A stretch of DNA of 64,000 bases, taken from Methylococcales bacterium. Its GTDB lineage: Bacteria; Pseudomonadota; Gammaproteobacteria; Methylococcales; Methylomonadaceae. A program made the position numbers and the translations under genes. Where the stretch lies: NCBI GenBank assembly GCA_965224575.1, contig CBDCZQ010000001.1:94798-158797 (forward strand). The letters run 5' to 3'. Below, one piece after another: positions 49,265 to 64,000 of the stretch. How positions within the stretch are numbered: position 1 is the first letter of the stretch; each line of letters opens with the position of its first letter. A model generated the notes under the pieces. The model saw only the letters and a list, made by a program, of their open reading frames with translations, made no database searches and was not told the DNA's origin.

Positions 49265-51673
49265 TTAGTTTGCCAATAAATTAATGCGTGCCATTAGTAC
49301 CGAAAGATCTGACCCGTCGGTGGTTTTTATACTAAAGTCAGCATTATTGTAACCATTTGAAAAAGTGCCGCTAACGGGGAAAGTTACGGTTCTGGTTTGT
49401 CCTCCTCCTTGAGTTGTGAGGACATTGCTGCTTCCATTAGTATGAACAAGCTGTAGCCCCATGATCCGATCATCTTTAAAGCTTATCTTGACATCAATTT
49501 TGCACCCGTTTGAACAGCGTTCCTGCATGAGCTGGTCATTAATATCGAATAACATTTCATTGGATTTTCGGGCGTAAAGCTCATAGTGCTGATTAATGTT
49601 TCTATCCGAAATTAGATTTCCAGCTCCCCAGTTCTCTTCGTCGACAGGCATGTCTTTTCGCATCGACTCATCTGCTATAGTAGGGCTTACCACCGAAAGC
49701 CAGCGACCAAACTCATTTATGGTGACATAGCCGCGATCATTGCCCTCAATTAAACACTGTTCTGAGGTATTACCACTTTTATACTCTGGGGGAAATAGCC
49801 CGAACGACGGATTCAGCGTTTTGTCACCTAAAATAACAAAAGCATCGGGTGTATCAGAACGGGTTCGTCCCAGTGTTTTTGAAAGGTAGGTGATGAAATC
49901 ACCTGAATGGAACTTAGTCTTTAGTCTCTCTGGGTGAGCAGAGTCAGGCGTGTATTGATGTTCAAATTGGTTATTGATGCTTTTCAGGTAATCAAGGCCT
50001 TCTGACCTTATCGATATATAGTTTCTACGTAACTGTAGTGCCCGCATTGAACTCATGTAAAAACGATATGCCTGATTGCTTAGCGGGCCTCCATAATCTA
50101 AAACCCAGTCCTCTGGACCATAAAATTCATTTTCATCACCCCAGTATTTATTTTGAATGGAATCGGCAAAGTCTTCATCGAACGTCATAGAGCAACTTTT
50201 ATCGATATTGTTTCCCGTCACTAAATTAACGCCATAAGTGTTTCCGGTATACCTCATCCAGTCTTCAATTTCTCCCTCTCTGTTTCCTATACCCTTGGCT
50301 TTCGCATAATTAATAATGGAAGGCAGTCTTGCATCAAAAGCAGATGGGCCAAACACGCCAGAGTAGCTGATGAACGCTAGTTTATTCTTGTGAACACCAA
50401 ATGCATCCACATACATATTGATAATGTCCTTAACGGTATCCTCAAAATTATCGGGTGTTAAACCATTATTTATACTTGCAGTGTCTTCACCAAGAGTCGA
50501 ATTTACCCAGAATTCACCCCATCCATCACGACCTCCACCATAGACCAGATTACCGAAGTCATCACTTTCTGGGCATTCACTGTTATTGTTGCCCTGATAA
50601 TACTCGCCATCAGCTATACCAAGATGGACGCCGATAATTTTATTGTTTCCTGCATATTCATTTGCAAAGGCATTAATAAACCCTTTCAACTGCATAACAT
50701 ACTCAGGTTTCCAGAACTGTAGGCTTTTATTCTCCAAGTAAGGTATAGAAGCCCATTCTGGAGCATGACACTGAGAATTCACCTCTAACCTGACTAACAC
50801 TTTATTATTGGTGGCATCCAGTCTTTGTTGAAAATCGTCCCAATCAAAGTGACCTTGAACACCTTCGCTCAAGCGCCAGACAACCTCCATAAAGTTGGTG
50901 CTTACTTCGGGGTCATCATTCCAGTTTCCACCTGTCATGCCTCCTTTGCTGGATTGGGTTGTGTATAGAGGTAATGACCAATCCATACCTTCGCTCAGCA
51001 AAGATATGCTGGCACCCAAAGCAATAGAGTGATTATTTGATTCGGTTAAAGCAGCGATCCAAAACCCATCCCAGGGATTTAGTTGATTATTCGTGCCTTT
51101 TTCAACATAGCTATTTCCATCATAAGTCCATACTTTGTTATGGAGAAGATTATTCTCTTTGGCCTTGTCAATGTTGCAGTTACCGTCATTGCAGGGGAGA
51201 GCAGTGGTGGTCAATCGAAGATCACCGAGATTCAAAGGGGATGAAAAAGGGTTTCCTGCTAGGTTCCATTGGTTAGATCCATCTTTTGATGGGGCTAGTG
51301 GAATTGATTCACTAGAGGCTATGGTACTGCCTTGTGGCATTTTCAGGGTGATCGATTTTCCTTCCTCAATAAGTTGGATAATCCAGTAGCCACTCCCTTT
51401 TTCCAATGTATCCGATAATGATACAGGCTCACCGTATTCATTGGAGTGGGGGTTATAGGCATAAATAGTCCAGTTTTGACCATAGGTACCACCTACACCT
51501 ATATTATCACCGATAATCTTTTCTAGTGTATTGGCTGATTCTGGAGGGGTGGCGGGTAATGAGATCATCCTCCATTTGTTATAAGGTAGTTCGAGCGTGG
51601 GGATAGTAGTTGCCAAAGAGCTAGTTGAAGCAATGAATAGCAAGCATGTAATAAAATATTTAATCGAAGCCAT
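49265..51673 (-). CDS. Secreted protein of unknown function (802 aa)
   Basis: Signal peptide MASIKYFITCLLFIASTSSLATT. Long ORF. The central part (FWKPEYVMQLKGFINAFANEYAGNNKIIGVHLGIADGEYY) is vaguely TIM-barrel glycoside-hydrolase-like, but this is unconfirmed. Confidence 0.6.
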   Translation of the reverse strand: MASIKYFITCLLFIASTSSLATTIPTLELPYNKWRMISLPATPPESANTLEKIIGDNIGVGGTYGQNWTIYAYNPHSNEYGEPVSLSDTLEKGSGYWIIQLIEEGKSITLKMPQGSTIASSESIPLAPSKDGSNQWNLAGNPFSSPLNLGDLRLTTTALPCNDGNCNIDKAKENNLLHNKVWTYDGNSYVEKGTNNQLNPWDGFWIAALTESNNHSIALGASISLLSEGMDWSLPLYTTQSSKGGMTGGNWNDDPEVSTNFMEVVWRLSEGVQGHFDWDDFQQRLDATNNKVLVRLEVNSQCHAPEWASIPYLENKSLQFWKPEYVMQLKGFINAFANEYAGNNKIIGVHLGIADGEYYQGNNNSECPESDDFGNLVYGGGRDGWGEFWVNSTLGEDTASINNGLTPDNFEDTVKDIINMYVDAFGVHKNKLAFISYSGVFGPSAFDARLPSIINYAKAKGIGNREGEIEDWMRYTGNTYGVNLVTGNNIDKSCSMTFDEDFADSIQNKYWGDENEFYGPEDWVLDYGGPLSNQAYRFYMSSMRALQLRRNYISIRSEGLDYLKSINNQFEHQYTPDSAHPERLKTKFHSGDFITYLSKTLGRTRSDTPDAFVILGDKTLNPSFGLFPPEYKSGNTSEQCLIEGNDRGYVTINEFGRWLSVVSPTIADESMRKDMPVDEENWGAGNLISDRNINQHYELYARKSNEMLFDINDQLMQERCSNGCKIDVKISFKDDRIMGLQLVHTNGSSNVLTTQGGGQTRTVTFPVSGTFSNGYNNADFSIKTTDGSDLSVLMARINLLAN

Positions 51674-52497
51674 TTTTTTCCTATTTATATATATCCCCAG
51701 TGTTCTGTGAATTTAGGTACAGACTCTGGTTGGTTAAACATGATGTTCCGTATTACTATTTTTTGAATGGTGCTATCAGGGCTTTATGGATCTAAATTTT
51801 AATGCCCTTTCCCAACTTAATGCAAGAATTTTATGAATAAAATGGATAAAAACCTAACTGGGAAATAGATATAGGGGGCGTGACAGGTGTTAAAAATACT
51901 TATTGATGCACTCTCAATTCAATAAAACTAGTGCTGAATGCGGATTCTGAGAGTGAAAGACAATAGATTCTCTATGCTGGGGTTCCATCAAGTTTTTGGA
52001 ACAGCATAATGATTTAATTTAGATTAGTAGATGGTGTCATAGCGGTTTAACCTCATTGTTTGTTGAATGAGCTTACAAAATTTACCCTGGTATGAGAACA
52101 ATAGAAAATGAGGTTACACTGTTTCTGCGATGAAGCAGTTTTTTGCTTTTTTCTCAGATATAGCGGCTTCACCCTACGGTTAAGGCTGTTTAGTAATATT
52201 AGAGTATTATTTATTTTAACCGTTCAAAAGCTACTCAGAGTCAAGTTAAAATGTACCCCGTCATCTTGTAAATTGTATTCGGTTTTATCGCGGGCATGAT
52301 TAAGATCATGGGCATAGTGAAAATCAGCTTTGATATATTAATCCAATATCTTTAGTAAAAGTAGTATTGGGTTGCAAAAAAAATGGCTGCCGAACCTGCA
52401 ATATTTTTTATGTACTTTATAATCGACCCCACGATTCTGTATATGGTTTTTTATTTAAAAGATTATTTTTGGTTTGTCTGAAGTAAAGCAGAAAAAC

Positions 52498-52536
52498 AAG
52501 GTGATATTTCACATAATTTATGTGAAATATCACCTT
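52498..52536. repeat. Perfect 39-nt palindrome (19-bp arms, 1-nt centre)
   Basis: AAGGTGATATTTCACATAA-T-TTATGTGAAATATCACCTT. It lies in the 1.1-kb AT-rich gap upstream of 52814 and the cytochrome cluster. Confidence 0.9.
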
Positions 52537-52813
52537 TACATGAAAACAAAAGTGAAGATAATTAAGCTCGTTCAAAAAAAATTAGTGACCTATTTTTAAG
52601 TGAGAGAGCTTTAAAAGGCATAATGAAATTATTTTGGCAAATTATAAATATTTTGTTCTTCTATTAAAATAGCGATGGATATTAAAGCCGTACTAAAAAA
52701 TTTTTAAGAGAAAATGTATTATGAGATTGAATAATGAAAAAACTTGATCATAAACAATTATTGAACATCAGCAACGTAAAATTAACTAAATTATTCGAGA
52801 GAGGAGTATAAAA

Positions 52814-53155
52814 ATGGTAGTGTGGACTGGGTTTGGTTTTTTAATAGCAATCATTGGTTTTGGTGCATTAGTTGGTACTGAAATTATTGTAGAAAATATT
52901 GCTGGAAATGAAAGTTTCTATCAAGATAACCCGTGGGTAATATTTTTTGGAATGGTTGTAGCTGCTGCTATAACGCATGCCTTAAATAAAACGATATTAT
53001 TGCCAAAATCTAAAGTAGTACTAGATAAAGAAACTAAGGAAGAGATTCTTTTGCGTAATGAACACTCTTTATTTTTCATTGCTGCTAAATGGTGGCCAGT
53101 CATTTTTATTGGTATTGGTGTGGTTTTTGCGATAAGGAGTTTTACAAACAGCTAA
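52814..53155 (+). CDS. Small membrane protein (113 aa, 3 TM), hypothetical
   Basis: Hydrophobic segments VVWTGFGFLIAIIGFGALVG, VIFFGMVVAAAITHAL and WWPVIFIGIGVVFAI. RBS GAGGAG 6 nt upstream. Confidence 0.45.
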   Translation: MVVWTGFGFLIAIIGFGALVGTEIIVENIAGNESFYQDNPWVIFFGMVVAAAITHALNKTILLPKSKVVLDKETKEEILLRNEHSLFFIAAKWWPVIFIGIGVVFAIRSFTNS

Positions 53156-53485
53156 TAATCGTATAAACAGAGAATCTGTAGGTAGAATAATTTAGCAGAA
53201 ATTATTGAGGAAGAATTAAAGATAAAGCGGACAAATAATCAAATTAAGACTTGGAATATTATAATATTATTAAATGTTATTTTATATGTAAGTGATTGTA
53301 TTTAAAAATAAAACCCTGTCTGTGTCTTAGGGTAAAAATTAAGTATTAATAATATATTAAAAAGTTCAATGAAAATATTATGTTTTGCGTTAGAATGCCA
53401 TTATATGAGAATCAGAAAAAATAATTAGAAGCTAAAAATATCGTAAAGCAAGACAAAATAAACTTAGTAAAAGAGGGTATTGTGT

Positions 53486-55270
53486 ATGATGTTAAATAGA
53501 CTGAATAAAAAATTTGTAACAGTTGTAGTCAGCTTTTTGTTGCTGACTATGTTTCAATCAAATACATTCGCTGATGAGGATGCAGTCGAGAAGGATGAGG
53601 CTGCTGAAGGTCATTTGGGGTTGTTTGTAGGGAATCGATTTCCTTCTGCAAATGAATGTAAATCCTGTCATCCAAAACACTATAAAGAGTGGTCAGTTTC
53701 TCAGCATGCTTATGCTCAATTGAGTCCCGTCTATATGGCAATGCAGAAGACCATTAATGCTGTAACAAGCAGTACCAATGGTGATTTCTGTATTCGATGT
53801 CATACCCCTGTAGGTATGAATCTGGAAGAAACCCCTTTTATGGCTAATTTAGACCGACATCCTACTTCAAGAGAGGGCGTTACTTGCATAGTTTGTCATC
53901 GGATGAATTTGGAATATGGAAAAGTTTCAGGTCGAGTGGCTTTACTGGAAGGTGATTTACAAAAACCAGTTTTTGGACCTAAAGGAAATAAAAATTTACA
54001 ACAAGCACTTGATGATCATCCTTTTTCATTAAAAGAAGGTGAGTCTGGTCGAAAGGTTCATTTAAAAGCGGGTCATTTTCCACGTATTTCAGATTCTGGG
54101 TTCTGTGGTGTATGTCACGATGTTAACTTATTTAATGGTTTTCGTTTAGAAGAAGCCTTTGCAGAATACAAAAACTCACCCGCTGCAAAAGAAGGCATTA
54201 GTTGTCAAGACTGCCATATGGGTAAAATTCAAGGTAAGAAATCAGGTTATGAAGAAGGTCCTGCCGCTTATCTTGGTGATGATTCTTCCAAACCTACAGC
54301 GCCAAGAAAATTGACTAATCATTATTTCGCAGGCCCTGACCACAGTATTATTCACCCAGGTATTTTTCCACACAATGAGGAAGCTGTAGAAATTGCAACA
54401 CTAAAAGAGTGGTTATTGTTTGACTATAAAGCAGGCTGGGGTACAGATGAATTTGAAGATAGTGTCGAAGACGATGCTGAGTTTCCAGAAGTTTGGGACT
54501 CTGTCGATGCCCGGTATGAAGCTAGAGAAGTATTAGATCAGCAATTTGAATTGTTGGAATGGGCCAAGGAAAAACGTGTAGAGGTATTAAAAAATGGCTT
54601 TGCTCATGGTGATATTAAAGTAGTCGAGGCGACTGAAAAAGATGGTATTAAGATTGAAGTCGAAGTTAAAAATATTACCAATGGTCATAATGTTCCTACT
54701 GGCTTTGATGCTGAACGAGTGATTTGGTTACAAACAACAATCACCAACCAAGAAGGGAAAATAATTTTCAAATCTGGAGACCTTGATCCAAATGGGGATG
54801 TACGTGATGCTCATTCACTCTATGTACATAATGGTGAAATTCCATTAGATTCTCAGTTACTGAATTTACAGTCCAAATTTCTGACTCGTAATGTTCGTGG
54901 GGGGGAAAGAGAACAAGTTCTCCCCATCAATTTTTCATTAGATCCACTGCCTTTTGTCCGGCCATCAACACGTTCAACTATTTTGACTGGGCAACCCTTT
55001 GGAGCTAGAAAACATCGGATGACAATTCCGCCGTTAGCAACTCGAATTCATAATTACAAAGTAGATTCTGAATTATTGACGGGTGCTGGTGAATATACTC
55101 TAAAGATTGCAATGAAGGTTGGAATGGTTCCTATCAACTTAATTGATGCTATAAAAGGTGTTGGTTTTGATTATGGGATGTCGACCAGAGAAATCGCTGA
55201 TGGAATTCGTGATGGACACACAACTGTATGGGAAACTGAAACTAAAATCCAAGTTCAATCTGCCAAGTAA
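53486..55270 (+). CDS. Periplasmic pentaheme c-type cytochrome with a ~300-aa heme-free C-terminal domain
   Basis: Signal peptide ...SNTFADE. Five CxxCH motifs: CKSCH, CIRCH, CIVCH, CGVCH, CQDCH. The C-terminal part contains VKNITNGHNVPTGFDAERVIWLQTTITNQEGK. The ORF track starts at TTG 53480; ATG 53486 has the better RBS spacing. Confidence 0.85.
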   Translation: MMLNRLNKKFVTVVVSFLLLTMFQSNTFADEDAVEKDEAAEGHLGLFVGNRFPSANECKSCHPKHYKEWSVSQHAYAQLSPVYMAMQKTINAVTSSTNGDFCIRCHTPVGMNLEETPFMANLDRHPTSREGVTCIVCHRMNLEYGKVSGRVALLEGDLQKPVFGPKGNKNLQQALDDHPFSLKEGESGRKVHLKAGHFPRISDSGFCGVCHDVNLFNGFRLEEAFAEYKNSPAAKEGISCQDCHMGKIQGKKSGYEEGPAAYLGDDSSKPTAPRKLTNHYFAGPDHSIIHPGIFPHNEEAVEIATLKEWLLFDYKAGWGTDEFEDSVEDDAEFPEVWDSVDARYEAREVLDQQFELLEWAKEKRVEVLKNGFAHGDIKVVEATEKDGIKIEVEVKNITNGHNVPTGFDAERVIWLQTTITNQEGKIIFKSGDLDPNGDVRDAHSLYVHNGEIPLDSQLLNLQSKFLTRNVRGGEREQVLPINFSLDPLPFVRPSTRSTILTGQPFGARKHRMTIPPLATRIHNYKVDSELLTGAGEYTLKIAMKVGMVPINLIDAIKGVGFDYGMSTREIADGIRDGHTTVWETETKIQVQSAK

Positions 55271-55287
55271 CTAAACAGGAATGTCTA

Positions 55288-56676
55288 ATGAATAAAAAAT
55301 TAAAGTTATTTAATATTACAAAACATAGTCTGTTTTTGAGCTTGTTACTTTCGTCTAGCGTGCTGTTTGCATCTGAAACGAGCAGACTTTCTGATATTGC
55401 CCCACCATTTCAAGGTGATGATGAACTACCTAAGAGAACACCTCCTATTATTGAAATTGGTGATGCTTTTTTAGGAACAGGAAATATTTCGCCTGGTTTT
55501 ACTTTGCCTACGGGTGCAGTATGGCAACCACGTTTTTGGGTTTATGGACAGTTAAACTCTGCAGTTCAAGCATGGGATACGGGTGACGGTACTTTTAATG
55601 CAGAATGGGCAAATCGACTTGATCTTTTTGGTAATTTACAATTAACAGGGACAGAGAGAGTCGTTATTGGTATACAGCCATTACAAAGCAAGGGTGGGCA
55701 ACATACTGGGTATGAATTTGGCCCTGAAGATCGAGGTTTTGAAGGCGCGAATATTAATATTCGGACATTGTTCTTTGAAGGAGACTTTTCTGAATTATTT
55801 CCAAAACTTGACGTGAAAGATTTTTCATCAAATGATTTAGGTTTTTCAGTTGGTCGGCAAAGTATTTTGTTTCAGGATGGATTTATCATTAACGATATTG
55901 TTGATTCCATAGGTATTACCCGAAATAATCTCCGTTTTTCCAGTCTTCCCTGGTTAAGCAATGGACGTATTAGCGCGGTTTATGCTTGGAATGGTATTCA
56001 TCGGGATGATAATTTAGAAGATGAAAACGCTGATTTATTTGCTATTTTTTCTCAATGGGATACTACATTTAGTACTATTGATATTGATGTCGCTTATGTT
56101 AATACAGATGACGAATCGGGTGGAGATCTTCTGAGTGGAGGTATTAGTGGAGTGCAAAGGTTTGGTGGTCTTTCAACCACACTTCGAGCCTTAGGTTCGT
56201 GGGCACCTGATGGCAGGTCTCGTCAATCGGATAATGGCGCATTGTTTTTTGCTGAGGCTGCCTGGACACCAGCTTATAGTGTAAATCTAGCTTACTTAAA
56301 TGCTTTTGCTTCCATCAATAACTTTCGTTCAGCGGCTCGTGATGTAAGAACTGGAGGGCCACTTGGACGAACTGGATTGTTGTTTGCTGCTCGGTCAGTG
56401 GGTGCATTTCCACCTGCTTTAAGCAATAGAGCTGATAAGGCTTATGGAATTGCTGCTGGCTACCAGATGTTCTTTGACAATAATAGGCGCCAGTTTATTA
56501 TGGAAATAGGTGGTCGTGCTGATGACAGCAATGATACCACGGGAGCTGGAATAGCCGCACGTTTACAACAAGCAATAGGAAAAAGGTATATTGCTCAGGT
56601 TGATGGTTTTGGTGTTATTAGAGATGATACTGATCTTGGCTATGGTGTACGGTTTGAAATGACAGTTAAATTCTAA
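55288..56676 (+). CDS. Predicted outer-membrane beta-barrel (porin-like) protein
   Basis: Signal peptide ...SVLFASE. Alternating-hydrophobic strands with aromatic girdles, Gly-rich turns, and a C-terminal ...GYGVRFEMTVKF with terminal Phe. It lies 17 nt after the pentaheme gene. Confidence 0.65.
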   Translation: MNKKLKLFNITKHSLFLSLLLSSSVLFASETSRLSDIAPPFQGDDELPKRTPPIIEIGDAFLGTGNISPGFTLPTGAVWQPRFWVYGQLNSAVQAWDTGDGTFNAEWANRLDLFGNLQLTGTERVVIGIQPLQSKGGQHTGYEFGPEDRGFEGANINIRTLFFEGDFSELFPKLDVKDFSSNDLGFSVGRQSILFQDGFIINDIVDSIGITRNNLRFSSLPWLSNGRISAVYAWNGIHRDDNLEDENADLFAIFSQWDTTFSTIDIDVAYVNTDDESGGDLLSGGISGVQRFGGLSTTLRALGSWAPDGRSRQSDNGALFFAEAAWTPAYSVNLAYLNAFASINNFRSAARDVRTGGPLGRTGLLFAARSVGAFPPALSNRADKAYGIAAGYQMFFDNNRRQFIMEIGGRADDSNDTTGAGIAARLQQAIGKRYIAQVDGFGVIRDDTDLGYGVRFEMTVKF

Positions 56677-56691
56677 TTAAAATAGGTTGAT

Positions 56692-57954
56692 TTGATGAAT
56701 ACTGAGGGTTTAATCCAAATTGCAGGATTATGTATTAGTGGTTTAGTTTTGCTACAAGTTATTTTCCTCAGTTTTTCATCTTTACGTGCAGGGGTTTATA
56801 AGCGACGTCAATGGCAAACTGAATTATCTGTTCTTGAAAAGCAAATTTCGTTACATGCACTTAACCTTGATTTAGCAAAAAATAAAAGTAAAGGTGCGTG
56901 GGAGGGTTACAGAAAATTTACAATTTCAAAAAAAGAACATGAAAAAAAAAGTGGTATCTGTTCTTTTTATTTGAAACCACATGATGGAATGTCGATTCCT
57001 TCTTTTGAACCAGGACAATATTTATTTTTCAAGTTAAATCTCTCTACTGAAAAAAAACCTATTCTTCGTTGTTATTCTTTATCTGATAGCCCTTTAAATA
57101 AGGATTGTTATCGTGTAAGTATAAAAAAAGCATTGCCTCCAGGAGATAATTCAAATCTACCTAGTGGCATTTCTTCTAGTTATTTTCATGATAACTTGCA
57201 AGAGGGCGATATTGTTGATGTTAGAGCGCCAAGTGGTAAGTTTTATATAGATCTATTAAGTCATAAACCTGTAGTTCTTATTGGTGGAGGCGTTGGTATT
57301 ACCCCTGTGCTTAGTATGCTGAATGCACTTTGTGATATAAATTCTCAGCGAGAAATTTGGTTCTTTTTTGGAATTAGAAATGGTGATGAACATATTATGG
57401 AGTCACATTTCAAAGCGATTGAAGACAAATTCGATAATATCCATATTAATATTTGCTACAGTAGACCAACCGAGCAGGATAAAAAAGAGAAAAAATATCA
57501 TCATGCCAGTCGGGTAAATATTGACTTGTTAAAACAATTGTTACCTAGTAACAATTATGAGTTTTATTTTTGTGGGCCACCTCAAATGATGGATAGTTTG
57601 GAAACAGACCTTAAAACTTGGGGTGTCCCCAAATCCTCTGTTAATTTTGAGCGTTTTGGCAGCCCGTCAAAAAAAATAGTAGAAACTCTGGATAAATCAA
57701 TCCCCATCAATTTTAGTCGTAGTCAAAAAACTTTAAATTGGGATGGGGCGCAATCCTTACTTGATCTTGCGGAAGATAATAATATTGTCATAGACTCCTC
57801 TTGTAAACGGGGAATGTGTGGTTTGTGTCAAACTTCAATTAAATCTGGCTCTGTATTCTACGATGAAATACCTGAATATTTACCTGAATTGGAAGAGGGG
57901 TTGTGCTTACCCTGTGTAGCAAAGACTAAGGACAAACTGGAATTAGATGCCTGA
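56692..57954 (+). CDS. Membrane-anchored ferredoxin-NAD(P) reductase-like flavoprotein with a C-terminal plant-type 2Fe-2S domain
   Basis: N-terminal TM LIQIAGLCISGLVLLQVIFLSF. FAD motif RCYSLSD. NAD(P) motif GGGVGITPVLSM. FCGPPQMM. 2Fe-2S ligands CKRGMCGLCQ...CLPC. Confidence 0.8.
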   Translation: MMNTEGLIQIAGLCISGLVLLQVIFLSFSSLRAGVYKRRQWQTELSVLEKQISLHALNLDLAKNKSKGAWEGYRKFTISKKEHEKKSGICSFYLKPHDGMSIPSFEPGQYLFFKLNLSTEKKPILRCYSLSDSPLNKDCYRVSIKKALPPGDNSNLPSGISSSYFHDNLQEGDIVDVRAPSGKFYIDLLSHKPVVLIGGGVGITPVLSMLNALCDINSQREIWFFFGIRNGDEHIMESHFKAIEDKFDNIHINICYSRPTEQDKKEKKYHHASRVNIDLLKQLLPSNNYEFYFCGPPQMMDSLETDLKTWGVPKSSVNFERFGSPSKKIVETLDKSIPINFSRSQKTLNWDGAQSLLDLAEDNNIVIDSSCKRGMCGLCQTSIKSGSVFYDEIPEYLPELEEGLCLPCVAKTKDKLELDA

Positions 57955-57991
57955 TTCCTTAAATGTTAACTTAAAGAGAGAAATCAAGATT

Positions 57992-59011
57992 ATGAATATA
58001 TTAATTAGAAGGATTCAAAGTTTTTTTCTATTTTCTATGATAGCACTAAGCTTATTAAATCCCGCATTCTCAAAAGAGGTTTCTCCGGAAACGATGGCAA
58101 CTTTAGGACCTAAAGCTTGTGCAAATTGTCATAAATCTTCAATCCGAGCATGGAAACCAACCCATCACTTTAAAACTTTTAAAGCCTTAACAAGAAATAA
58201 AGAAGCAAAGGTCATTGCTAAAAAAATGGGTATTAAGCGAATGAAAAGCGGAAGTGATTGTTTGACTTGTCATTTCACCTCTAAACCGAAAAAAGGTAAA
58301 ACAAAAGTAGTAGCGGGTATCTCCTGTGAATCTTGTCATGGTCCAGCAAAAGGCTGGATGGATATTCATAGTGATTTTGGTGGAAAAGGAGTTAAAGCAG
58401 CGGATGAAACACCAGAGCATAAAGTTACACGCTTTGCTGAGTCAGTTAAAAACGGCATGATTAGACCTTCTAATTTATATGATGTAGGTAAAAACTGTTA
58501 TAGCTGCCATACAGTCCCTAATGAAAAACTAGTTAATACAGGTGGTCATACCGCAGGTAGTGATTTCGAATTGGTAAAATGGAGTCAAGGAGAAGTGCGT
58601 CATAATGTCTGGTATGACGATAAAGTGAATAACTCTCCAGCTGTAGAGCGCTTACGTATGATGTATATTATTGGTAAAGCATTGGATCTAGAATATGCAT
58701 TACGAGGACTTGCAAAAGCGACTGAAGAACAAACTTACTATACATCAATGGTTAAACGTCAACAAACTGCTTCAGCAGATTTACAGCAAGTCGCTGATAA
58801 ATTAAAAGTTGCTGAAATAACAGCCATCATAACTGCGGCTTCTAGTGCCGAGGTTAAAGTTAATAATTTAGATGCTCTAAATGGTGCAGCAGATAAAGTC
58901 GGTGCTGCTGCTCAGGCAGCCGCTAAGAAATTTGATGGTGCTCAGTTTGCAGCTATTGATGGTTTGTTACCTGCGGCAGCTGATTATAAGGGTGCAGTAT
59001 TTCAACCATAA
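57992..59011 (+). CDS. Periplasmic tetraheme c-type cytochrome with an Ala-rich C-terminal tail
   Basis: Signal peptide MNILIRRIQSFFLFSMIALSLLNPAFS. Four CxxCH motifs: CANCH, CLTCH, CESCH, CYSCH. The tail reads ...AAASSAEVKVNNLDALNGAADKVGAAAQAAAKKFDGAQFAAIDGLLPAAADYK. The ORF track starts at 57947, overlapping the previous gene. Confidence 0.85.
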   Translation: MNILIRRIQSFFLFSMIALSLLNPAFSKEVSPETMATLGPKACANCHKSSIRAWKPTHHFKTFKALTRNKEAKVIAKKMGIKRMKSGSDCLTCHFTSKPKKGKTKVVAGISCESCHGPAKGWMDIHSDFGGKGVKAADETPEHKVTRFAESVKNGMIRPSNLYDVGKNCYSCHTVPNEKLVNTGGHTAGSDFELVKWSQGEVRHNVWYDDKVNNSPAVERLRMMYIIGKALDLEYALRGLAKATEEQTYYTSMVKRQQTASADLQQVADKLKVAEITAIITAASSAEVKVNNLDALNGAADKVGAAAQAAAKKFDGAQFAAIDGLLPAAADYKGAVFQP

Positions 59012-59032
59012 ATTAAGATATTGTTTTTTGTA

Positions 59033-59118
59033 GGTTGGGCTAACAGCTCTATCGTTAACCCAACGACTTTATGTTATGTAAAGTTAGGTGTAAAAAAGAA
59101 ACAGCCCAACCTACAACA
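59033..59118. repeat. Partial BIME-like repeat
   Basis: GTAGGTTGGGCTAACAGCTCTATCGTTAACCCAAC (module 2, inverted) ... AACAGCCCAACCTACAAC. Confidence 0.7.
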
Positions 59119-59211
59119 ATCTCTTAGCATAATGCTAATCAGACTTTAGAGCTTTTGCTTGAGTCTACCTTACAGAAGCTTTGGTATTGAAAGAAAAATT
59201 TGTTTCACCTT

Positions 59212-59406
59212 AGGAGTGAGGATTTAATAATATCCGTATCTTGACGCAGGGTTTTAGTTCGTTTCAAGGCCTAGAAACGAGCGCATAGCAGGCTACGCAA
59301 CCGTTTCTACAACGCAGAAGACGAGCAAAAAGATTAGAAAATATTTAGCGATTCTTAATGCTTTAGTACAAATTAAGATACGGATATTATTAAATCCTCA
59401 CTCCTT
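59212..59406. repeat. MITE-like 195-bp element, relative of 42044-42203
   Basis: AGGAGTGAGGATTTAATAATATCCGTATC at 59212-59240 pairs with GATACGGATATTATTAAATCCTCACTCCT at 59378-59406. The internal ...GCGCATAGCAGGCTACGCAAC...AACGCAGAAGACG... is shared with the 42-kb copy. Confidence 0.8.
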
Positions 59407-59426
59407 AGGATTAAGTCAAGTAAATT

Positions 59427-61115
59427 ATGATTGATAAAGAAAAATGGTGGGACCCGAGAATGACAGAACAGGATATTAAGAATATCCTGTTCTGTGAAAT
59501 TTTCAATAAAATTGACCAAGATAAATTTCCATCAAGTCGTTCATTAGAAAGTATTATTTGTGAGCATACTCGTCTGGTTGATTTTAAAGCAGGGGAGGTG
59601 ATTGTTCGTGCTGGTGATTATGGTAATTCAGCTTTTTTAATTATTGATGGAAATGTTGACATTATTTTGCCAACTAATAGTTCGGATAAAATCTTTGGTC
59701 ATCCTGTTTCACAGCCGACTAATTGGTTTAAAGAAATAGCAAAATTGTGGAAAAACAGCGTTTACCCTGAGGTTAGAAATTACCAAAACAATGCATCAAA
59801 TACTTTAGATATTCAGGTTGACCATGATAGACACAGAGTCTTTATTAAGAATTATTCTAAAATAATAGAGCAGTTAAAAAAAAGTGTTATTAAAAGAACA
59901 TCAGGAGATATTACTGGTGAAATCGCAGCATTAAGCCGTTCCCCCAGAACGGCACATATCATAGCGTCTACAGACAGTCAGTTATTAGAAATTCGTTGGC
60001 AAGGTTTACATACATTGCGTAAGTTTAATGATGAATTTCGACAAAAAGTGGATATGCTTTATAGAAAGAACAGCCTGGATGCCTTACGTATATTACCTTT
60101 GTTTTCAAATTTAGAAAAACATGAACAAGATCAGGTTATTGAGCATTCGCTGTTTGAATCTTATGGTGAGTTTTCTTGGCAGGATGACTATAAAAAAGAT
60201 GTTGAGCAGGAATCTTCTGATTTATTAAAGAATGAAACTTTAATTGTTGCAGAAGGTGATTATGCCGATGGTTTATTATTTATACGTTCAGGTATTGCTC
60301 GTGTTAGTAATAAATACAATCATGGACATAGGGTTTTAAAGTATCTTAATAAAGGAGATGTTTTTGGCTTGGATGTGATGATACATAATTGGAAAAATAA
60401 GGACAGTATTCCATTGGCGACAAGTCTATATGCAGTTGGGTATACTGATGTTTTACGTGTTCCTTATCATATAATTGAACAATTTGTTTTACCTAAAATG
60501 TCATCCTCAGAAATAGATAAAAGCTTGTTGGAGCTTGAAACTATTTCTAGTGAAAATAAAGACTATGCAAAGGATCTGCGTATTTCAGATGGCATGTTAG
60601 ATTTTATGAGTGATTATCGCTACATAAATGGTTCAGCTAGTATGTTAATAGATCTGGATCGATGTATTCGGTGTGATGATTGCGTTAATGCTTGTGCTGT
60701 AGGGCATAATAATAATCCTCGTTTTAACAGGCATGGCCGGCGATATGATCATTTTATGGTAGCTAATGCTTGTATGCATTGCCATGATCCTGTTTGTATG
60801 ATTGGTTGTCCAACAGGTGCAATTCATCGAGAACCCAGTGGACAAATTGCCATTAATGATGATACCTGTATTGGTTGTAGTACCTGCGCCAATTCTTGTC
60901 CATATGACAATATCAGGATGATAAGTGCAAGGGATGAAATGGGAGAACTTATGACAGATGAAATGAGCCAGAAACCTGTCATAAAAGCAACGAAATGTGA
61001 TTTATGCGTCGATCAGATTGGTGGCCCTGCCTGTGTAAGAGCGTGTCCGCATGATGCATTAACTCGTATAGATTTTCTTGCTTTATCTACTTTAATTGAT
61101 AAGTGGGATCAATAA
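59427..61115 (+). CDS. Cytoplasmic fusion of two cyclic-nucleotide-binding (CAP-effector) domains and an NrfC/DmsB-type four-cluster FeS module
   Basis: cNMP domain 1: FKAGEVIVRAGDYGNSAFLIIDGNV...GDITGEIAALSRSPRTAHIIA. Domain 2: LIVAEGDYADGLLFIRSGIARV...GDVFGLD. Four Cys clusters: CIRCDDCVNAC, CMHCHDPVCMIGCP, CIGCSTCANSCP, CDLCVDQIGGPACVRACP. No Tat or Sec leader. Confidence 0.8.
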   Translation: MIDKEKWWDPRMTEQDIKNILFCEIFNKIDQDKFPSSRSLESIICEHTRLVDFKAGEVIVRAGDYGNSAFLIIDGNVDIILPTNSSDKIFGHPVSQPTNWFKEIAKLWKNSVYPEVRNYQNNASNTLDIQVDHDRHRVFIKNYSKIIEQLKKSVIKRTSGDITGEIAALSRSPRTAHIIASTDSQLLEIRWQGLHTLRKFNDEFRQKVDMLYRKNSLDALRILPLFSNLEKHEQDQVIEHSLFESYGEFSWQDDYKKDVEQESSDLLKNETLIVAEGDYADGLLFIRSGIARVSNKYNHGHRVLKYLNKGDVFGLDVMIHNWKNKDSIPLATSLYAVGYTDVLRVPYHIIEQFVLPKMSSSEIDKSLLELETISSENKDYAKDLRISDGMLDFMSDYRYINGSASMLIDLDRCIRCDDCVNACAVGHNNNPRFNRHGRRYDHFMVANACMHCHDPVCMIGCPTGAIHREPSGQIAINDDTCIGCSTCANSCPYDNIRMISARDEMGELMTDEMSQKPVIKATKCDLCVDQIGGPACVRACPHDALTRIDFLALSTLIDKWDQ

Positions 61116-61933
61116 TGAATTATTCTGGGCGTCGCATTCAAAATAGTTTGTTAAGCATTGCACTAACTGCTGTTTTACTTATTTTTTTAAAAATATATGG
61201 GATTCCTTTATATCGAATGCAAGTCTGGTCAGGCTGGATTCTTTTTACCTTAATTTTATTGCTGCTAATTTATAATATTAGGAAGAAACTTTCGATGTTA
61301 CCTTTAGGAAGGGCTGCATTTTGGTTGCAGTGTCATGCTTATTTGGGCTTAGTAACATGTGTTATGTTTATCCAGCATATTAACTTTCGGTTTCCCAGTG
61401 GAAATTTTGAAATTCTATTTTCTAGCGTTTTTATTTTTACTGCTTTTACTGGAATATTTGGCTTGATACTGTCTAGAGTTGTCCCTAAATATTTATCAAG
61501 CAGAGGGGAAGAGGTAATTTTTGAGCGTATTCCAATATTTACTGTTAAGCTTAAAGATCAATCTCAAGCACTCATTAAAGAGTGTGTGAGTGCAACAAAA
61601 TCAAAAGTATTATTTGATTATTATCAGCAACATTTATTTGAATATTTTTGTGAACCAAAAAATATTTTTTTTCATTTAATAGGGTCTAATTCAGCATGGA
61701 ATAAAATGCTTATTAAACACCGTACTTTTGATCGGTTTTTAAGTGATGAAGAGAATGAATATGCTGATAAATTACTCATTTTAATGCGACAAAAGAACGA
61801 CCTTGATTACCATTATGCTCTTCAAGGTCTATTAAAAGCCTGGACTTTTTTGCATTTTCCCCTGAGTTTTGCACTGTTGGTTTTATCCCTACTCCATGTG
61901 GCATTGGTTTATGCTTTTGTCGGAGGTATTTAA
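61115..61933 (+). CDS. Polytopic inner-membrane protein (about 5 TM, conserved-looking His in TM segments), unknown family
   Basis: TM segments include AAFWLQCHAYLGLVTCVMFIQHI and FLHFPLSFALLVLSLLHVALVY. The ATG at 61115 overlaps the upstream TAA (TAATG), and its own TAA overlaps the next ATG (TAATG at 61931-61935). The ORF track starts at GTG 61103. Confidence 0.65.
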   Translation: MNYSGRRIQNSLLSIALTAVLLIFLKIYGIPLYRMQVWSGWILFTLILLLLIYNIRKKLSMLPLGRAAFWLQCHAYLGLVTCVMFIQHINFRFPSGNFEILFSSVFIFTAFTGIFGLILSRVVPKYLSSRGEEVIFERIPIFTVKLKDQSQALIKECVSATKSKVLFDYYQQHLFEYFCEPKNIFFHLIGSNSAWNKMLIKHRTFDRFLSDEENEYADKLLILMRQKNDLDYHYALQGLLKAWTFLHFPLSFALLVLSLLHVALVYAFVGGI

Positions 61934-64000
61934 TGCGTAGCAAAGCCCAACCTCTTCAAAATTTTGATTTTCAAGAGAGTCCTTATGAAAGACCTAATCA
62001 AAAGTGGGTCTGTGGAAAAAAGGCTCAGGGGTGTCCCTGTGAAATAGGGCCTGATAAAAAAGGGAAATGCCGAGCAGATTTTGAATGTAAACCTAAAGCT
62101 AGCATAAATGGCGATCAGTGGAATTGTACACGTTCTAGTTCTTTTGGTGGTAATTGTACTCATGGTCCGTTACCTGATGGTACATGTTGCCAGCCCATTA
62201 CCCCTTGTTATCCAGTCCGAAGTATTAGATATAAGCGGTCTTTGGTAATAAAGTGGGTAACGATAGCGACTTTAGGAATTCTTCTGCTTCTCATAAATGG
62301 AAGTAGTAAACATCATTTTATCAGCCCAGGCGAATTAACCTATCAGCATGCGAATAATACTGAATGCTCTGATTGCCATCAAGTTTTTGATAAAGGGTTT
62401 ACTGGATGGGTACATCAGGCACTCAATTCCGTCAATATTATTGATAACAATGAGCAATGTATTAATTGTCATGAACTAGGTGAACATGCTGATGAAGCGC
62501 ATGGATTGTCTGAAGCAGGACTTAAAAAAATATCTTATACCTTGGATGCAGGGAAAGAAAGTCCGGATAGGCAACAAATTGCCTGTATGACATGCCATGT
62601 TGAGCACCATGGTACAAATAATAATTTGTTGGCAGTTAATAGCCAGAATTGTGCTTTATGTCATGATCTTCCTTTTAAGAATGGTAAAAAATCTCATCCT
62701 GAATTCCGTCAATATCCTTATCGACATAGAACAGGGATTATTTTTGATCATACTCAACATTACGATAAACATTTTTTTGATAAAAGTGGTGAAACTCGGA
62801 AAGAGAATGCACCGAGTTCATGTTTAACTTGTCATGCAAGTGATAAGAATGGGATAAAAATGGTTGTTAGGGATTATCAGAAAACATGTTCTGAATGCCA
62901 CAATAGTCTATTTGAAGAATCAGAGGCATTTCCTGTCATTACTGTTCCTGCTTTAGATACTGAAAATATTGTTTCACTAGGAGCCTGGCCTGCTGATGCA
63001 GATGCTGGATTAACACCTTTTATGAAATTACTTCTTTCCAATGGCGATAAAATCAAAGCCGTTTTGGCAGAACTTGATGGAGGCGATCTTACAGAATTGG
63101 AAGAAGAAGATGCACAAGTTGTTGCTTGGAGCATTAAAGAATTATTTTACGATATATATAAACAGGGAGATGTTGCTGTTACACAACGATTAGCAAATGC
63201 ATTTAATTGCCAAATAAATTCAAAGGGTAAATTGATTCAAGAACCCGCTTGTCAATTAACAGTGAATAAATTAGATGCTTTAGTTTCAGCTTTCCCATAT
63301 CCACTCTTTTGCTCTGCCCAAAAGGAATGGTTTCCAAAACTGGCTAATGAAATTAAGCTTTATCTTGATTTTAAAGGGAAAAGAAAAAATATTTTGTCTA
63401 ATTCCTCACTCACTTTTTGCGAAACGATAAATAAGACTGCGGATAGTGATTCAGATTCAGAGGCTTGGATGCTAGATTATTTTACTCTGAGTTACCGCCC
63501 TGTAACTCATGCTGATAAATTTTTTAGCACATGGTTAAATGCCAGTCAAAATCATCAGGGTGAATCATTAGATGACAAAACACGAAAAGAAATATTTGAT
63601 TTGTTAAACTCTGAAGATTCAGCAGGGCAGTGTATTTATTGTCATAGTGTTGATAGTATTGATACAGATAATAATTATATACATTGGTCAACTCCTCAGT
63701 GGAACCCAAAGCGTAAAGACTTTATTCGTTTTAATCATGCGGGTCATTTACGACACCAAGAAGAAAGTGTATGTAAAGATTGTCATAAAGAAAACAAAGA
63801 AGCTGATTACTTAGCCAGCTATAAAAACAGTACTCCTTTAGATTTTCAGAGTAATTTCTCAACTGGAAAAGAACAATGCGAGACTTGTCATAATCAAGCG
63901 ATGACAGAAAAACAATGTCAAACATGTCATAATTATCATGTTAGTGATGATAATGATTTTTCCAATCAGGATTTTATGGGAAGAGGAAACTTAAAAGTTT
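61933..64000 (+). CDS. Membrane-anchored multiheme c-type cytochrome (at least 10 hemes) with a Cys-rich N-terminal cytoplasmic segment; 3' end outside the window
   Basis: This ORF is not in the supplied track because it has no stop in the window. It runs for 689 codons without a stop from ATG 61933. The pre-TM region has 11 Cys (CGKKAQGCPCEIGPDKKGKCRADFECKP...NCTRSSSFGGNCTHGPLPDGTCCQPITPCYP). The TM segment is WVTIATLGILLLLI. It then carries CSDCH, CINCH, CMTCH, CALCH, CLTCH, CSECH, CIYCH, CKDCH, CETCH and CQTCH. Confidence 0.85.
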   Translation, partial: MRSKAQPLQNFDFQESPYERPNQKWVCGKKAQGCPCEIGPDKKGKCRADFECKPKASINGDQWNCTRSSSFGGNCTHGPLPDGTCCQPITPCYPVRSIRYKRSLVIKWVTIATLGILLLLINGSSKHHFISPGELTYQHANNTECSDCHQVFDKGFTGWVHQALNSVNIIDNNEQCINCHELGEHADEAHGLSEAGLKKISYTLDAGKESPDRQQIACMTCHVEHHGTNNNLLAVNSQNCALCHDLPFKNGKKSHPEFRQYPYRHRTGIIFDHTQHYDKHFFDKSGETRKENAPSSCLTCHASDKNGIKMVVRDYQKTCSECHNSLFEESEAFPVITVPALDTENIVSLGAWPADADAGLTPFMKLLLSNGDKIKAVLAELDGGDLTELEEEDAQVVAWSIKELFYDIYKQGDVAVTQRLANAFNCQINSKGKLIQEPACQLTVNKLDALVSAFPYPLFCSAQKEWFPKLANEIKLYLDFKGKRKNILSNSSLTFCETINKTADSDSDSEAWMLDYFTLSYRPVTHADKFFSTWLNASQNHQGESLDDKTRKEIFDLLNSEDSAGQCIYCHSVDSIDTDNNYIHWSTPQWNPKRKDFIRFNHAGHLRHQEESVCKDCHKENKEADYLASYKNSTPLDFQSNFSTGKEQCETCHNQAMTEKQCQTCHNYHVSDDNDFSNQDFMGRGNLKV

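Follow-up and report, generated by a model that had tools for sequence, protein, structure and literature searches.

The distal part of a 64,000 nucleotide stretch from the genome of a Methylococcales bacterium (GenBank assembly GCA_965224575.1, contig CBDCZQ010000001.1, positions 94,798 to 158,797 of the forward strand; hereafter the window) is occupied by seven genes which very probably represent a copy of the cluster known from a preprint as ptdABCDEFG. Their products include three multihaem cytochromes c and may form an electron transfer chain across the cell envelope. All seven open reading frames are located co-directionally on the + strand. They comprise ptdA (53486 to 55270), which codes for a secreted pentahaem cytochrome c of 594 amino acids, ptdB (55288 to 56676; outer-membrane beta-barrel, 462 amino acids), ptdC (56695 to 57954; membrane-anchored FNR-type flavoprotein, 419 amino acids), ptdD (57947 to 59011; periplasmic c554-like tetrahaem cytochrome, 354 amino acids), ptdE (59427 to 61115; cytoplasmic protein combining cyclic nucleotide (cNMP) binding domains with a four-cluster ferredoxin module, 562 amino acids), ptdF (61115 to 61933; inner-membrane protein, 272 amino acids) and the decahaem cytochrome gene ptdG (61933 to 64000), which is cut by the end of the window. 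An ENA contig (L001) which is identical to the window and reaches past its end (L001 position 4060 equals window position 53486) allowed the completion of PtdG to 813 amino acids with the gene ending at the window-equivalent position 64374. The completed protein still contains ten haem motifs, which agrees with the minimum of ten given in the initial annotation of this locus, made from the sequence of the window.

In total, exactly 19 CxxCH sites are present in the cluster, five in PtdA, four in PtdD and ten in PtdG; at least 19 had been reported initially. Since the remaining 53.5 kb of the window contain only three such sites among 106,954 six-frame codons, a chance accumulation is excluded. 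The genes are tightly spaced. As previously annotated, 17 nt separate ptdA from ptdB (55270 to 55288), and ptdC overlaps with ptdD; the overlap measures 8 nt (57947 versus 57954). The reported distance of 15 nt between ptdB and ptdC, in contrast, is obtained only if translation of ptdC starts from an alternative TTG codon at 56692, while the start chosen by the gene caller (56695) results in 18 nt. Of the two TAATG stop/start overlaps, the one at 61933 (ptdF/ptdG) was read directly from the sequence, while that at 61115 (ptdE/ptdF) follows from the end coordinate of the reading frame and the gene calls.

The initial annotation divided the genes into two operons at the gap of 415 nt between the fourth and the fifth gene, ptdD and ptdE. 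Such a split could not be established, as no + strand terminator was detected in this gap, part of which consists of a strain-specific repeat. This repeat, located at 59208 to 59409, is about 200 nt long, resembles a miniature inverted-repeat transposable element (MITE) with 35 nt terminal inverted repeats of 97% complementarity and occurs a single time in the window. About 187 nt (59216 to 59402) are absent from three contigs which are otherwise 91 to 97% identical (L002, L085 and L086). The MITE-like stretch is therefore considered a strain-specific insertion which inflates the apparent distance between the "operons". Scans for promoters and terminators yielded counts at chance level, and no family was found in an Rfam scan of positions 52000 to 64000.

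Identity, distribution and variants of the cluster

A gene cluster of the same composition was named ptdABCDEFG by Elbon, Stewart and Glass in a preprint of 2023/24 (bioRxiv 10.1101/2023.11.21.568154), with the published order pentahaem cytochrome with beta-sandwich, porin, FAD/NAD(P) oxidoreductase, tetrahaem cytochrome, cNMP/Fe-S protein, membrane protein and decahaem cytochrome. Domains and family hidden Markov models (HMMs) place the genes of the window in this very order, A-B-C-D-E-F-G. In addition, the seven proteins match those of three contigs from Table S7 of the preprint (FWZX01000031, JABDKW010000018 and MABD01000037, corresponding to our loci L063, L025 and L037) in order and with 30 to 64% identity. 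Products, gene order and the 5/4/10 distribution of haem motifs are the same, nothing essential is different, and the locus is, as judged from these sequence comparisons, almost certainly a complete copy of ptdABCDEFG. The initial statement that the combination corresponds to no named system hence does not hold. The cluster is a known one, yet not a characterised one, as the preprint describes its function as one that "remains completely unknown" and reports no functional experiments. Our literature searches for the cluster under any name retrieved this single preprint, which also reports transcription of ptdAB in an alphaproteobacterium of oxygen-deficient zones and an occurrence mainly in marine or saline habitats. 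The discovery of the cluster was thus made elsewhere, and the value of the window is confirmatory, adding a further copy and sharper hypotheses.

Some details deviate from the published description. The preprint assigns two [4Fe-4S] motifs to PtdE, whereas we count four, and it labels PtdF "ferric reductase-like", whereas we find only weak, sub-threshold similarity of this protein to b-type cytochrome families. Furthermore, the copy in the window possesses an extra DUF4384 domain at the C-terminus of PtdG (amino acids about 695 to 775, E = 1e-20; window positions 63979 to 64000, L001 positions 14554 to 14948) and a downstream OmpA-like gene. Both additions are lineage-specific, being absent from most orthologous clusters and present in the closest relative (L085).

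Identity with the Hao, Otr, Nrf, Mtr, Hmc and Tmc systems is ruled out by NCBIfam scores and motifs. None of the three cytochromes PtdA, PtdD and PtdG contains a CxxCK motif, the active-site motif of NrfA-type nitrite reductases, and scores for Hmc and Tmc subunits remain far below the respective cutoffs (HmcB 47.6 of 420 bits, HmcA 15.8 of 400 bits, TmcA 18.3 of 114 bits). Like Tmc/Hmc and FdnGHI/CbcL, the ptd cluster combines periplasmic multihaem cytochromes c with an Fe-S protein and a membrane cytochrome b, for which PtdF is a candidate. It differs from these systems in that cNMP-binding domains are fused to its Fe-S subunit, which is located in the cytoplasm, and in that it contains neither CCG/HdrD-type nor NrfD-type subunits.

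To assess conservation, one genome per species was scanned with PtdB as seed. This yielded 270 relatives, for which 80 loci were returned, and gene architectures were derived by tblastn and family HMMs. Because the scan was seeded on PtdB, all locus frequencies are conditional on the presence of this protein. The full A-B-C-D-E-F-G order is found in about 45 of the 80 loci, their hosts belonging to the Gammaproteobacteria, Alphaproteobacteria, Verrucomicrobiota, Lentisphaerota, Planctomycetota and Nitrospinota; the genes are hence conserved together in related genomes. Haem counts are virtually constant among orthologues, amounting to five in 67 of 70 PtdA, four in all 65 PtdD and ten in 49 of 51 PtdG sequences. 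Shortened versions comprise ABCDFG (four loci), ABDEFG (four loci, Marinicaulis/Parvularculaceae), ABDFG lacking both C and E (four Phycisphaerae loci, L048, L052, L068 and L071, whose divergent PtdF was recognised by hhalign with a probability of 98.8%) and AB alone (several loci). The gene pair ptdA and ptdB is the only invariant one, and its products rank among the most conserved. Median identity to the proteins of the window, calculated over 36 full loci, is highest for PtdA (60%, maintained across phyla), followed by PtdD (49%), PtdB (48%), PtdE (43%), PtdC (42%), PtdF (38%) and PtdG (33%). A multihaem cytochrome gene adjoins the barrel gene in 78 of 81 loci, and no other flanking gene family is common to more than eight of the 81. 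The module therefore consists of the seven ptd genes. The neighbour shared most frequently, a glutamate dehydrogenase gene with an antisense reading frame, reflects synteny among related Gammaproteobacteria and was rejected as a component. Within the module ptdAB is the constant core, D, F and G are its usual partners, with C and E as optional inputs.

The module is apparently exchanged in parts, as seen from a comparison with three assemblies of a close relative over 53640 to 56640 and 56640 to 61250. Compared to a Cocleimonas contig from a metagenome-assembled genome (MAG; L002), the DNA of the window is about 70 to 76% identical in ptdAB and 94 to 97% identical in ptdC to ptdE, with a sharp break near 56640 at the ptdB/ptdC boundary. 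One JGI contig (L086) shows 76% identity over 53984 to 57148, that is into early ptdC, and 94 to 95% from about 57088 on. In a second one (L087; 83% overall identity) ptdC adjoins the same divergent PtdB. These patterns suggest a replacement of the ptdAB cassette by recombination and its exchange between lineages, the locus being a mosaic.

Two unusual loci deserve mention. In L084 (7129 to 12034), from a MAG, FHA-PtdC, PtdD, FHA-PtdE, PtdF and PtdG are encoded downstream of a divergently oriented Ser/Thr kinase gene, the FHA domains being N-terminal. FHA domains, which are also present on several other PtdE homologues, point, when found on PtdC and PtdE beside such a kinase, to regulated cytoplasmic subunits. 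In L082 (1 to 14903), from a Chthoniobacterales MAG, ptdC, ptdB and ptdA occupy one strand and ptdD to ptdG the other; the PtdB of this locus has diverged much further, and ResB/CcsA-type cytochrome c maturation genes adjoin the cluster. Judged by this MAG, the family may extend beyond marine and saline habitats. Altogether, clusters of the ptd type are known from at least 270 species-level genomes and thousands of metagenomic protein clusters, mostly of marine origin. Several hosts carry species names and are apparently cultured (Tistlia consotensis, Roseibium aggregatum, Abyssibacter profundi, Spartinivicinus marinus and Sulfidibacter corallicola from Table S7 of the preprint, and Thalassobaculum litoreum DSM 18839 from our scan); therefore, genetic tests should be possible.

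The pentahaem cytochrome PtdA and the outer-membrane channel PtdB

PtdA starts with a Sec-type signal peptide in which no lipobox cysteine is seen. Its five haem motifs lie within the first about 250 residues and are followed by a long conserved C-terminal part, the protein being composed of an N-terminal five-haem domain and a C-terminal immunoglobulin (Ig)-like domain. Pfam assigns it to Cytochrome_C554 (E = 1.9e-9), while the best NCBIfam match, ExtKL (NF040886), reaches 40.2 bits compared to a cutoff of 250. The profile of the PtdA orthologues aligns with cytochrome c552 of T. tepidum (PDB 5ZE8; E = 7.2e-14), which likewise consists of a five-haem N-terminal and an Ig-like C-terminal domain. 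The alignment covers the haem motifs and a further patch in the Ig-like domain, and its colinearity extends through a "GHxxPTG" loop. A weak relationship (E about 0.03, three short colinear patches) connects the profile to MccSep (PDB 9WT8), a periplasmic polysulfide reductase whose haem 2 is ligated by Cys239 and which bears selenocysteine 325 on a loop of its Ig domain (bioRxiv 10.1101/2025.11.18.688581). In this alignment the invariant residues Arg220, Leu221, Glu222 and Glu223 of PtdA fall on the MccSep loop which provides the haem 2 ligand Cys239. Correspondingly, the invariant "GHNVPTGF" loop of PtdA coincides with "GHSIPDGU" of MccSep (U denoting Sec325), so that Gly406 and Phe407 occupy the position of the selenocysteine loop, and the invariant Glu410 and Arg411 follow. 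While the five CxxCH motifs and the loop are thus shared with MccSep/ExtKL, PtdA has neither a conserved extra cysteine nor a selenocysteine, RLEE replacing the QCC loop and phenylalanine the selenocysteine. The possibility that PtdA itself is an MccSep/ExtKL selenoprotein was rejected, since the aligned positions hold Leu/Glu and Phe and the NF040886 score is far below the cutoff. Compared to the members of the c552/MccSep family PtdA is about 150 residues longer. By its sequence PtdA is a member of this pentahaem family which has kept the architecture of MccSep and whose chemistry, going by the substituted positions, must differ. Like ptdA, the MccSep gene adjoins a gene for an outer-membrane barrel (extI).

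This relationship also bears on the direction of electron flow. If PtdA oxidised a low-potential sulfur or nitrogen donor in the periplasm, electrons might be carried inward and used for reduction of NAD(P)+ or ferredoxin, that is, for lithotrophy. The lithotrophs among the hosts (Nitrospinales, a Cocleimonas-like sulfur oxidiser and Acidiferrobacter) would fit this proposal, as would the origin of cytochrome c552 from a purple sulfur bacterium and the fact that in Nitrosomonas hydroxylamine oxidoreductase passes its electrons to c554-type cytochromes. Nevertheless, we regard inward flow as highly improbable, as it would have to proceed against the membrane potential with no recognisable coupling site in the cluster, the hosts are mostly heterotrophs, and MccSep and MccA, the relatives of PtdA which have been characterised, act as reductases (bioRxiv 10.1101/2025.11.18.688581).

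PtdB possesses a signal peptide, about 430 mature residues and a C-terminus ending in VKF. The barrel is preceded at the N-terminus by about 45 residues which are highly conserved. The AlphaFold2 (AF2) model computed from an alignment of 26 sequences is a beta-barrel (predicted local distance difference test (pLDDT) 80.1, predicted TM-score (pTM) 0.75) of about 18 strands (18 to 20), in accordance with the initial assignment of the product starting at 55288 as a barrel. Foldseek retrieves chitoporin, MOMP, AlgE, OccK/OprD and Wzi as top matches, all of them substrate-specific outer-membrane channels of 18 strands (E = 5.5e-11 to about 3e-8, query-normalised TM-score 0.40 to 0.56). No Pfam or NCBIfam family matches PtdB, MtrB_PioB (PF11854) included, and its more than 2000 homologues are all unannotated. 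According to the model PtdB looks like a solute channel rather than an MtrB-like sheath.

The nature of this barrel bears on the reading favoured in both the initial annotation and the preprint (bioRxiv 10.1101/2023.11.21.568154), in which PtdB sheathes a haem protein and the cluster serves as a conduit, either for the reduction of extracellular Fe(III)/Mn(IV) minerals or complexes or for the entry of electrons from an external donor. Several observations speak in favour of such a conduit. As in MtrCAB/Pcc systems, the barrel gene almost invariably lies beside multihaem cytochrome genes, and the arrangement follows the same envelope-spanning logic. The three cytochromes encoded account for 19 c-type haems, PtdG being anchored in the inner membrane; from general haem spacing a chain of this length is estimated to span roughly the periplasm. 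Weak Pfam matches to MtrC/MtrF domains II/IV exist, a cytochrome nanowire relative belongs to the c552 family, and the preprint, which puts forward the conduit, refers to unexplained iron reduction in oxygen-deficient zones. On the other hand, solved MtrB has 26 strands, whereas PtdB with about 18 strands and some 430 mature residues resembles AlgE, OprD and chitoporin. MtrB_PioB membership is lacking, and scores for the DmsE/MtrA family (TIGR03508) amount to 29.2 bits for PtdA, 16.0 for PtdD and 26.9 for PtdG with a cutoff of 192.2. No product is annotated or predicted as a surface lipoprotein cytochrome, PtdA, which is devoid of a lipobox cysteine, being assigned to the periplasm by PSORTb in the preprint (bioRxiv 10.1101/2023.11.21.568154). 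In addition, the two-domain PtdA of about 65 kDa seems too bulky to be threaded through a barrel of the size of PtdB, for the most part the hosts are aerobic heterotrophs from the sea, nitrite oxidisers and sulfur oxidisers, and ptd, as opposed to MtrCAB/Pcc, encodes a cytoplasmic NAD(P)H/Fe-S input. Together with the enzyme-family kinship of PtdA, the barrel fold and the sub-threshold Mtr scores leave the initially drawn Mtr/Pcc analogy weak, and we consider a conduit through PtdB rather unlikely. The initial interpretation as an electron conduit, which comes close to the speculation in the preprint, is supported in part.

Cytoplasmic input, membrane passage and the proposed chain

PtdC consists of an N-terminal transmembrane helix, an FAD and an NAD(P) domain and a C-terminal plant-type [2Fe-2S] domain. 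All three Pfam matches exceed their cutoffs (FAD_binding_6 31.2 bits, NAD_binding_1 72.7 bits, Fer2 34.7 bits), and in NCBIfam the reductase region of flavohaemoprotein (Hmp) is recognised (8.6e-75). The RxYS, GGGxGxxP and CGP motifs as well as the [2Fe-2S] ligands Cys371, Cys376, Cys379 and Cys408 are conserved, and the protein thus agrees in all domains and motifs with an FNR-like flavoprotein carrying a plant-type ferredoxin domain. For PtdD, which matches Cytochrome_C554 of Pfam (E = 3.1e-15) and reaches 55.8 bits with NCBIfam Cyt554_Nsmonas (cutoff 400 bits), the signal peptide begins at an internal methionine (57992) that may be the true start. PtdE contains two cNMP-binding domains and a ferredoxin module of the type known from FdnH, DmsB and HydN, in which 16 conserved cysteines form four motifs corresponding to four [4Fe-4S] clusters (Pfam cNMP_binding, 8.7e-24, and Fer4_11; NCBIfam regions AegA, HydN and DmsB). 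The phosphate-binding cassette of its first cNMP domain is canonical, Gly164 and Glu165 being present in all 40 orthologues and Arg174 in 31 of 40, while the second domain is degenerate in the copy of the window. Since neither a signal peptide nor a Tat motif is found in any of the 40 orthologues, PtdE is considered cytoplasmic. A hydrophobic anchor is present at the N-terminus of PtdC in 41 of 45 orthologues, and hydrophobic, signal-peptide-like N-terminal segments are found in 50 of 60 PtdA, 46 of 73 PtdB and 50 of 62 PtdD orthologues. The domain assignments and the distribution over the compartments proposed initially are thus borne out.

PtdF comprises five predicted transmembrane helices and a cytoplasmic helical domain (AF2 model, pLDDT 90.6). 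Four histidines, His74, His88, His247 and His261, are invariant and form two i/i+14 pairs on two transmembrane helices, which suggests the presence of two b haems. No structural neighbour was found in the PDB by Foldseek (best E = 0.65), and no relative by sequence profile. Neither does any Pfam family reach its threshold, NrfD and NarI included, and 120 homologues are without a precomputed Pfam domain. Sub-threshold matches among 35 members are dominated by DUF4405 (23), followed by Ni_hydr_CYTB (7) and Ferric_reduct (PF01794; 2, E about 0.01), the latter two being b-type cytochrome families. From its sequence PtdF is a candidate di-haem cytochrome b of an unsolved fold. The N-terminus of PtdG is formed by a Cys-rich stretch of about 100 residues, after which come basic residues and a single transmembrane helix. 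The position of these basic residues places the N-terminus inside and the haem domain outside, the latter containing six haem motifs, a haem-free insert of about 240 amino acids and four further haem motifs. The Cys pattern of the N-terminus is conserved among orthologues and occurs in 46 of the 47 loci which contain PtdE, compared to 1 of 11 without it (p = 2e-9), which argues that both act together at the cytoplasmic face.

We interpret the cluster as a gated trans-envelope chain which is fed by NAD(P)H or quinol, controlled by a cyclic nucleotide and terminates with a reductase in the periplasm, located at an outer-membrane channel of its own, rather than as an Mtr-type wire through a porin. 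This is our best reading of the data, with a probability of roughly 45%. According to it, PtdC would oxidise NAD(P)H and pass the electrons via FAD to its [2Fe-2S] cluster. PtdE would relay them over its four [4Fe-4S] clusters, a step presumably controlled by cyclic nucleotide binding, and, jointly with the Cys-rich N-terminus of PtdG, would dock to PtdF from the cytoplasmic side. The two b haems predicted from the invariant histidines of PtdF would carry the electrons across the inner membrane. Haem counts and topology suggest a subsequent periplasmic path from PtdG (ten haems) via PtdD (four) to PtdA (five). Going by its relatives, PtdA might finally reduce a soluble substrate which enters, or whose product leaves, through PtdB. 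In lineages without PtdC and/or PtdE, PtdF (with PtdG) may instead draw on the quinol pool in a CbcL-like manner.

This last variant leads to a further explanation, in which PtdF and PtdG generally constitute a quinol:cytochrome c oxidoreductase resembling CbcL or CymA, and PtdC and PtdE are regulatory or redox-sensing accessories. The Phycisphaerae clusters devoid of C and E, as well as the ABCDFG and ABDEFG variants, are consistent with this assumption. Ni_hydr_CYTB, one of the sub-threshold matches of PtdF, includes b subunits which react with quinones, for example FdnI, HydC and the N-terminal domain of CbcL, and the cNMP and FHA domains suggest signalling. Yet, the seven-gene form is by far the most frequent one, PtdC retains every catalytic FNR motif along with its [2Fe-2S] ligands, PtdE retains all 16 cluster cysteines, and the co-occurrence of the Cys domain of PtdG with PtdE implies that electrons or a redox signal arrive at the cytoplasmic face. 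As, moreover, no quinone site was identified, we judge an exclusively quinol-fed branch of this kind to be unlikely.

Several points weigh against the gated chain with a terminal reductase. In PtdA the conserved histidines, which include His45, His76, His194, His281 and His292, would suffice for five bis-His haems, so that an open catalytic haem is only a candidate; the alignment with MccSep is weak and consists of three short patches, and the c552 family also accommodates a nanowire relative. The strand number of PtdB is taken from the AF2 model, and predicted Pcc porins of Geobacter are of similar size, such that a cytochrome sheath would be compatible with the size of PtdB. The haems of PtdF are deduced from histidine conservation, and the first of the four histidines is missing from one variant of the Phycisphaerae. 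The L084 locus contains ptdCDEFG with no adjacent ptdAB. Outward electron flow would dissipate membrane potential without an obvious benefit to the cell, and our literature searches found no experiment on any Ptd protein. Once a substrate of PtdA is shown, a widespread electron transfer system would be given a role, and ptd could reveal a new route for the export of cytoplasmic reducing power.

A more speculative extension of the gated chain, which we consider unlikely, sees ptd as the bacterial counterpart of the eukaryotic NOX/FRE enzymes, stretched over a two-membrane envelope, cNMP-gated, powered by NAD(P)H and with the pentahaem reductase docked at its own channel. In common with NOX/FRE and MsrQ-Fre, it features an FNR-type NAD(P)H dehydrogenase and a membrane protein with two bis-His haem sites on two helices (predicted in the case of PtdF), and electrons are likewise proposed to move from cytoplasmic NAD(P)H past the inner membrane. 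In contrast to NOX/FRE, these functions reside on separate polypeptides with additional [2Fe-2S] and 4x[4Fe-4S] relays. PtdF stays below the PF01794 threshold, has no Foldseek neighbour and shows an i/i+14 histidine spacing, and the acceptor is a 19-haem c-type chain instead of O2 or Fe(III) directly. The target would then be a solute typically present in seawater at low concentration, such as Fe(III) in organic complexes, iodate or O2/reactive oxygen species. If true, this would imply a new enzyme class and, in PtdF, a di-haem membrane fold of a new kind, distributed over hundreds of lineages, most of them marine; complexed Fe(III) as target would amount to reductive iron uptake.

Genomic surroundings

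Upstream of the cluster lie bamA, skp, fabZ, lpxA, rnhB and dnaE. The GC content is uniform, and ptd is therefore placed in an ordinary chromosomal setting. The nearest genome match of the species-level scan is the MAG of an uncultured Cocleimonas sp., and the host is read as a Cocleimonas-like gammaproteobacterium, the copy being counted among the Thiotrichales. On L001 ptdG is followed by the OmpA-like gene and then by unrelated genes. Two long reading frames shortly upstream of ptd, one on the + strand (45828 to 47678, 616 amino acids) and one on the - strand (49265 to 51673, 802 amino acids, with a signal-peptide-like start), have no match in Pfam. Downstream of the window, at L001 16848 to 18980 (window-equivalent about 66274 to 68406), a membrane protein of 710 amino acids is encoded which is recognised neither by Pfam nor by NCBIfam. 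A sequence search of the PDB relates its residues from about 409 to 660 to the catalytic domain of class III adenylate cyclases (E about 6e-10). It was rejected as a component of the ptd module, not being conserved at other ptd loci; going by this similarity, it could serve as a local source of cyclic nucleotide for PtdE.

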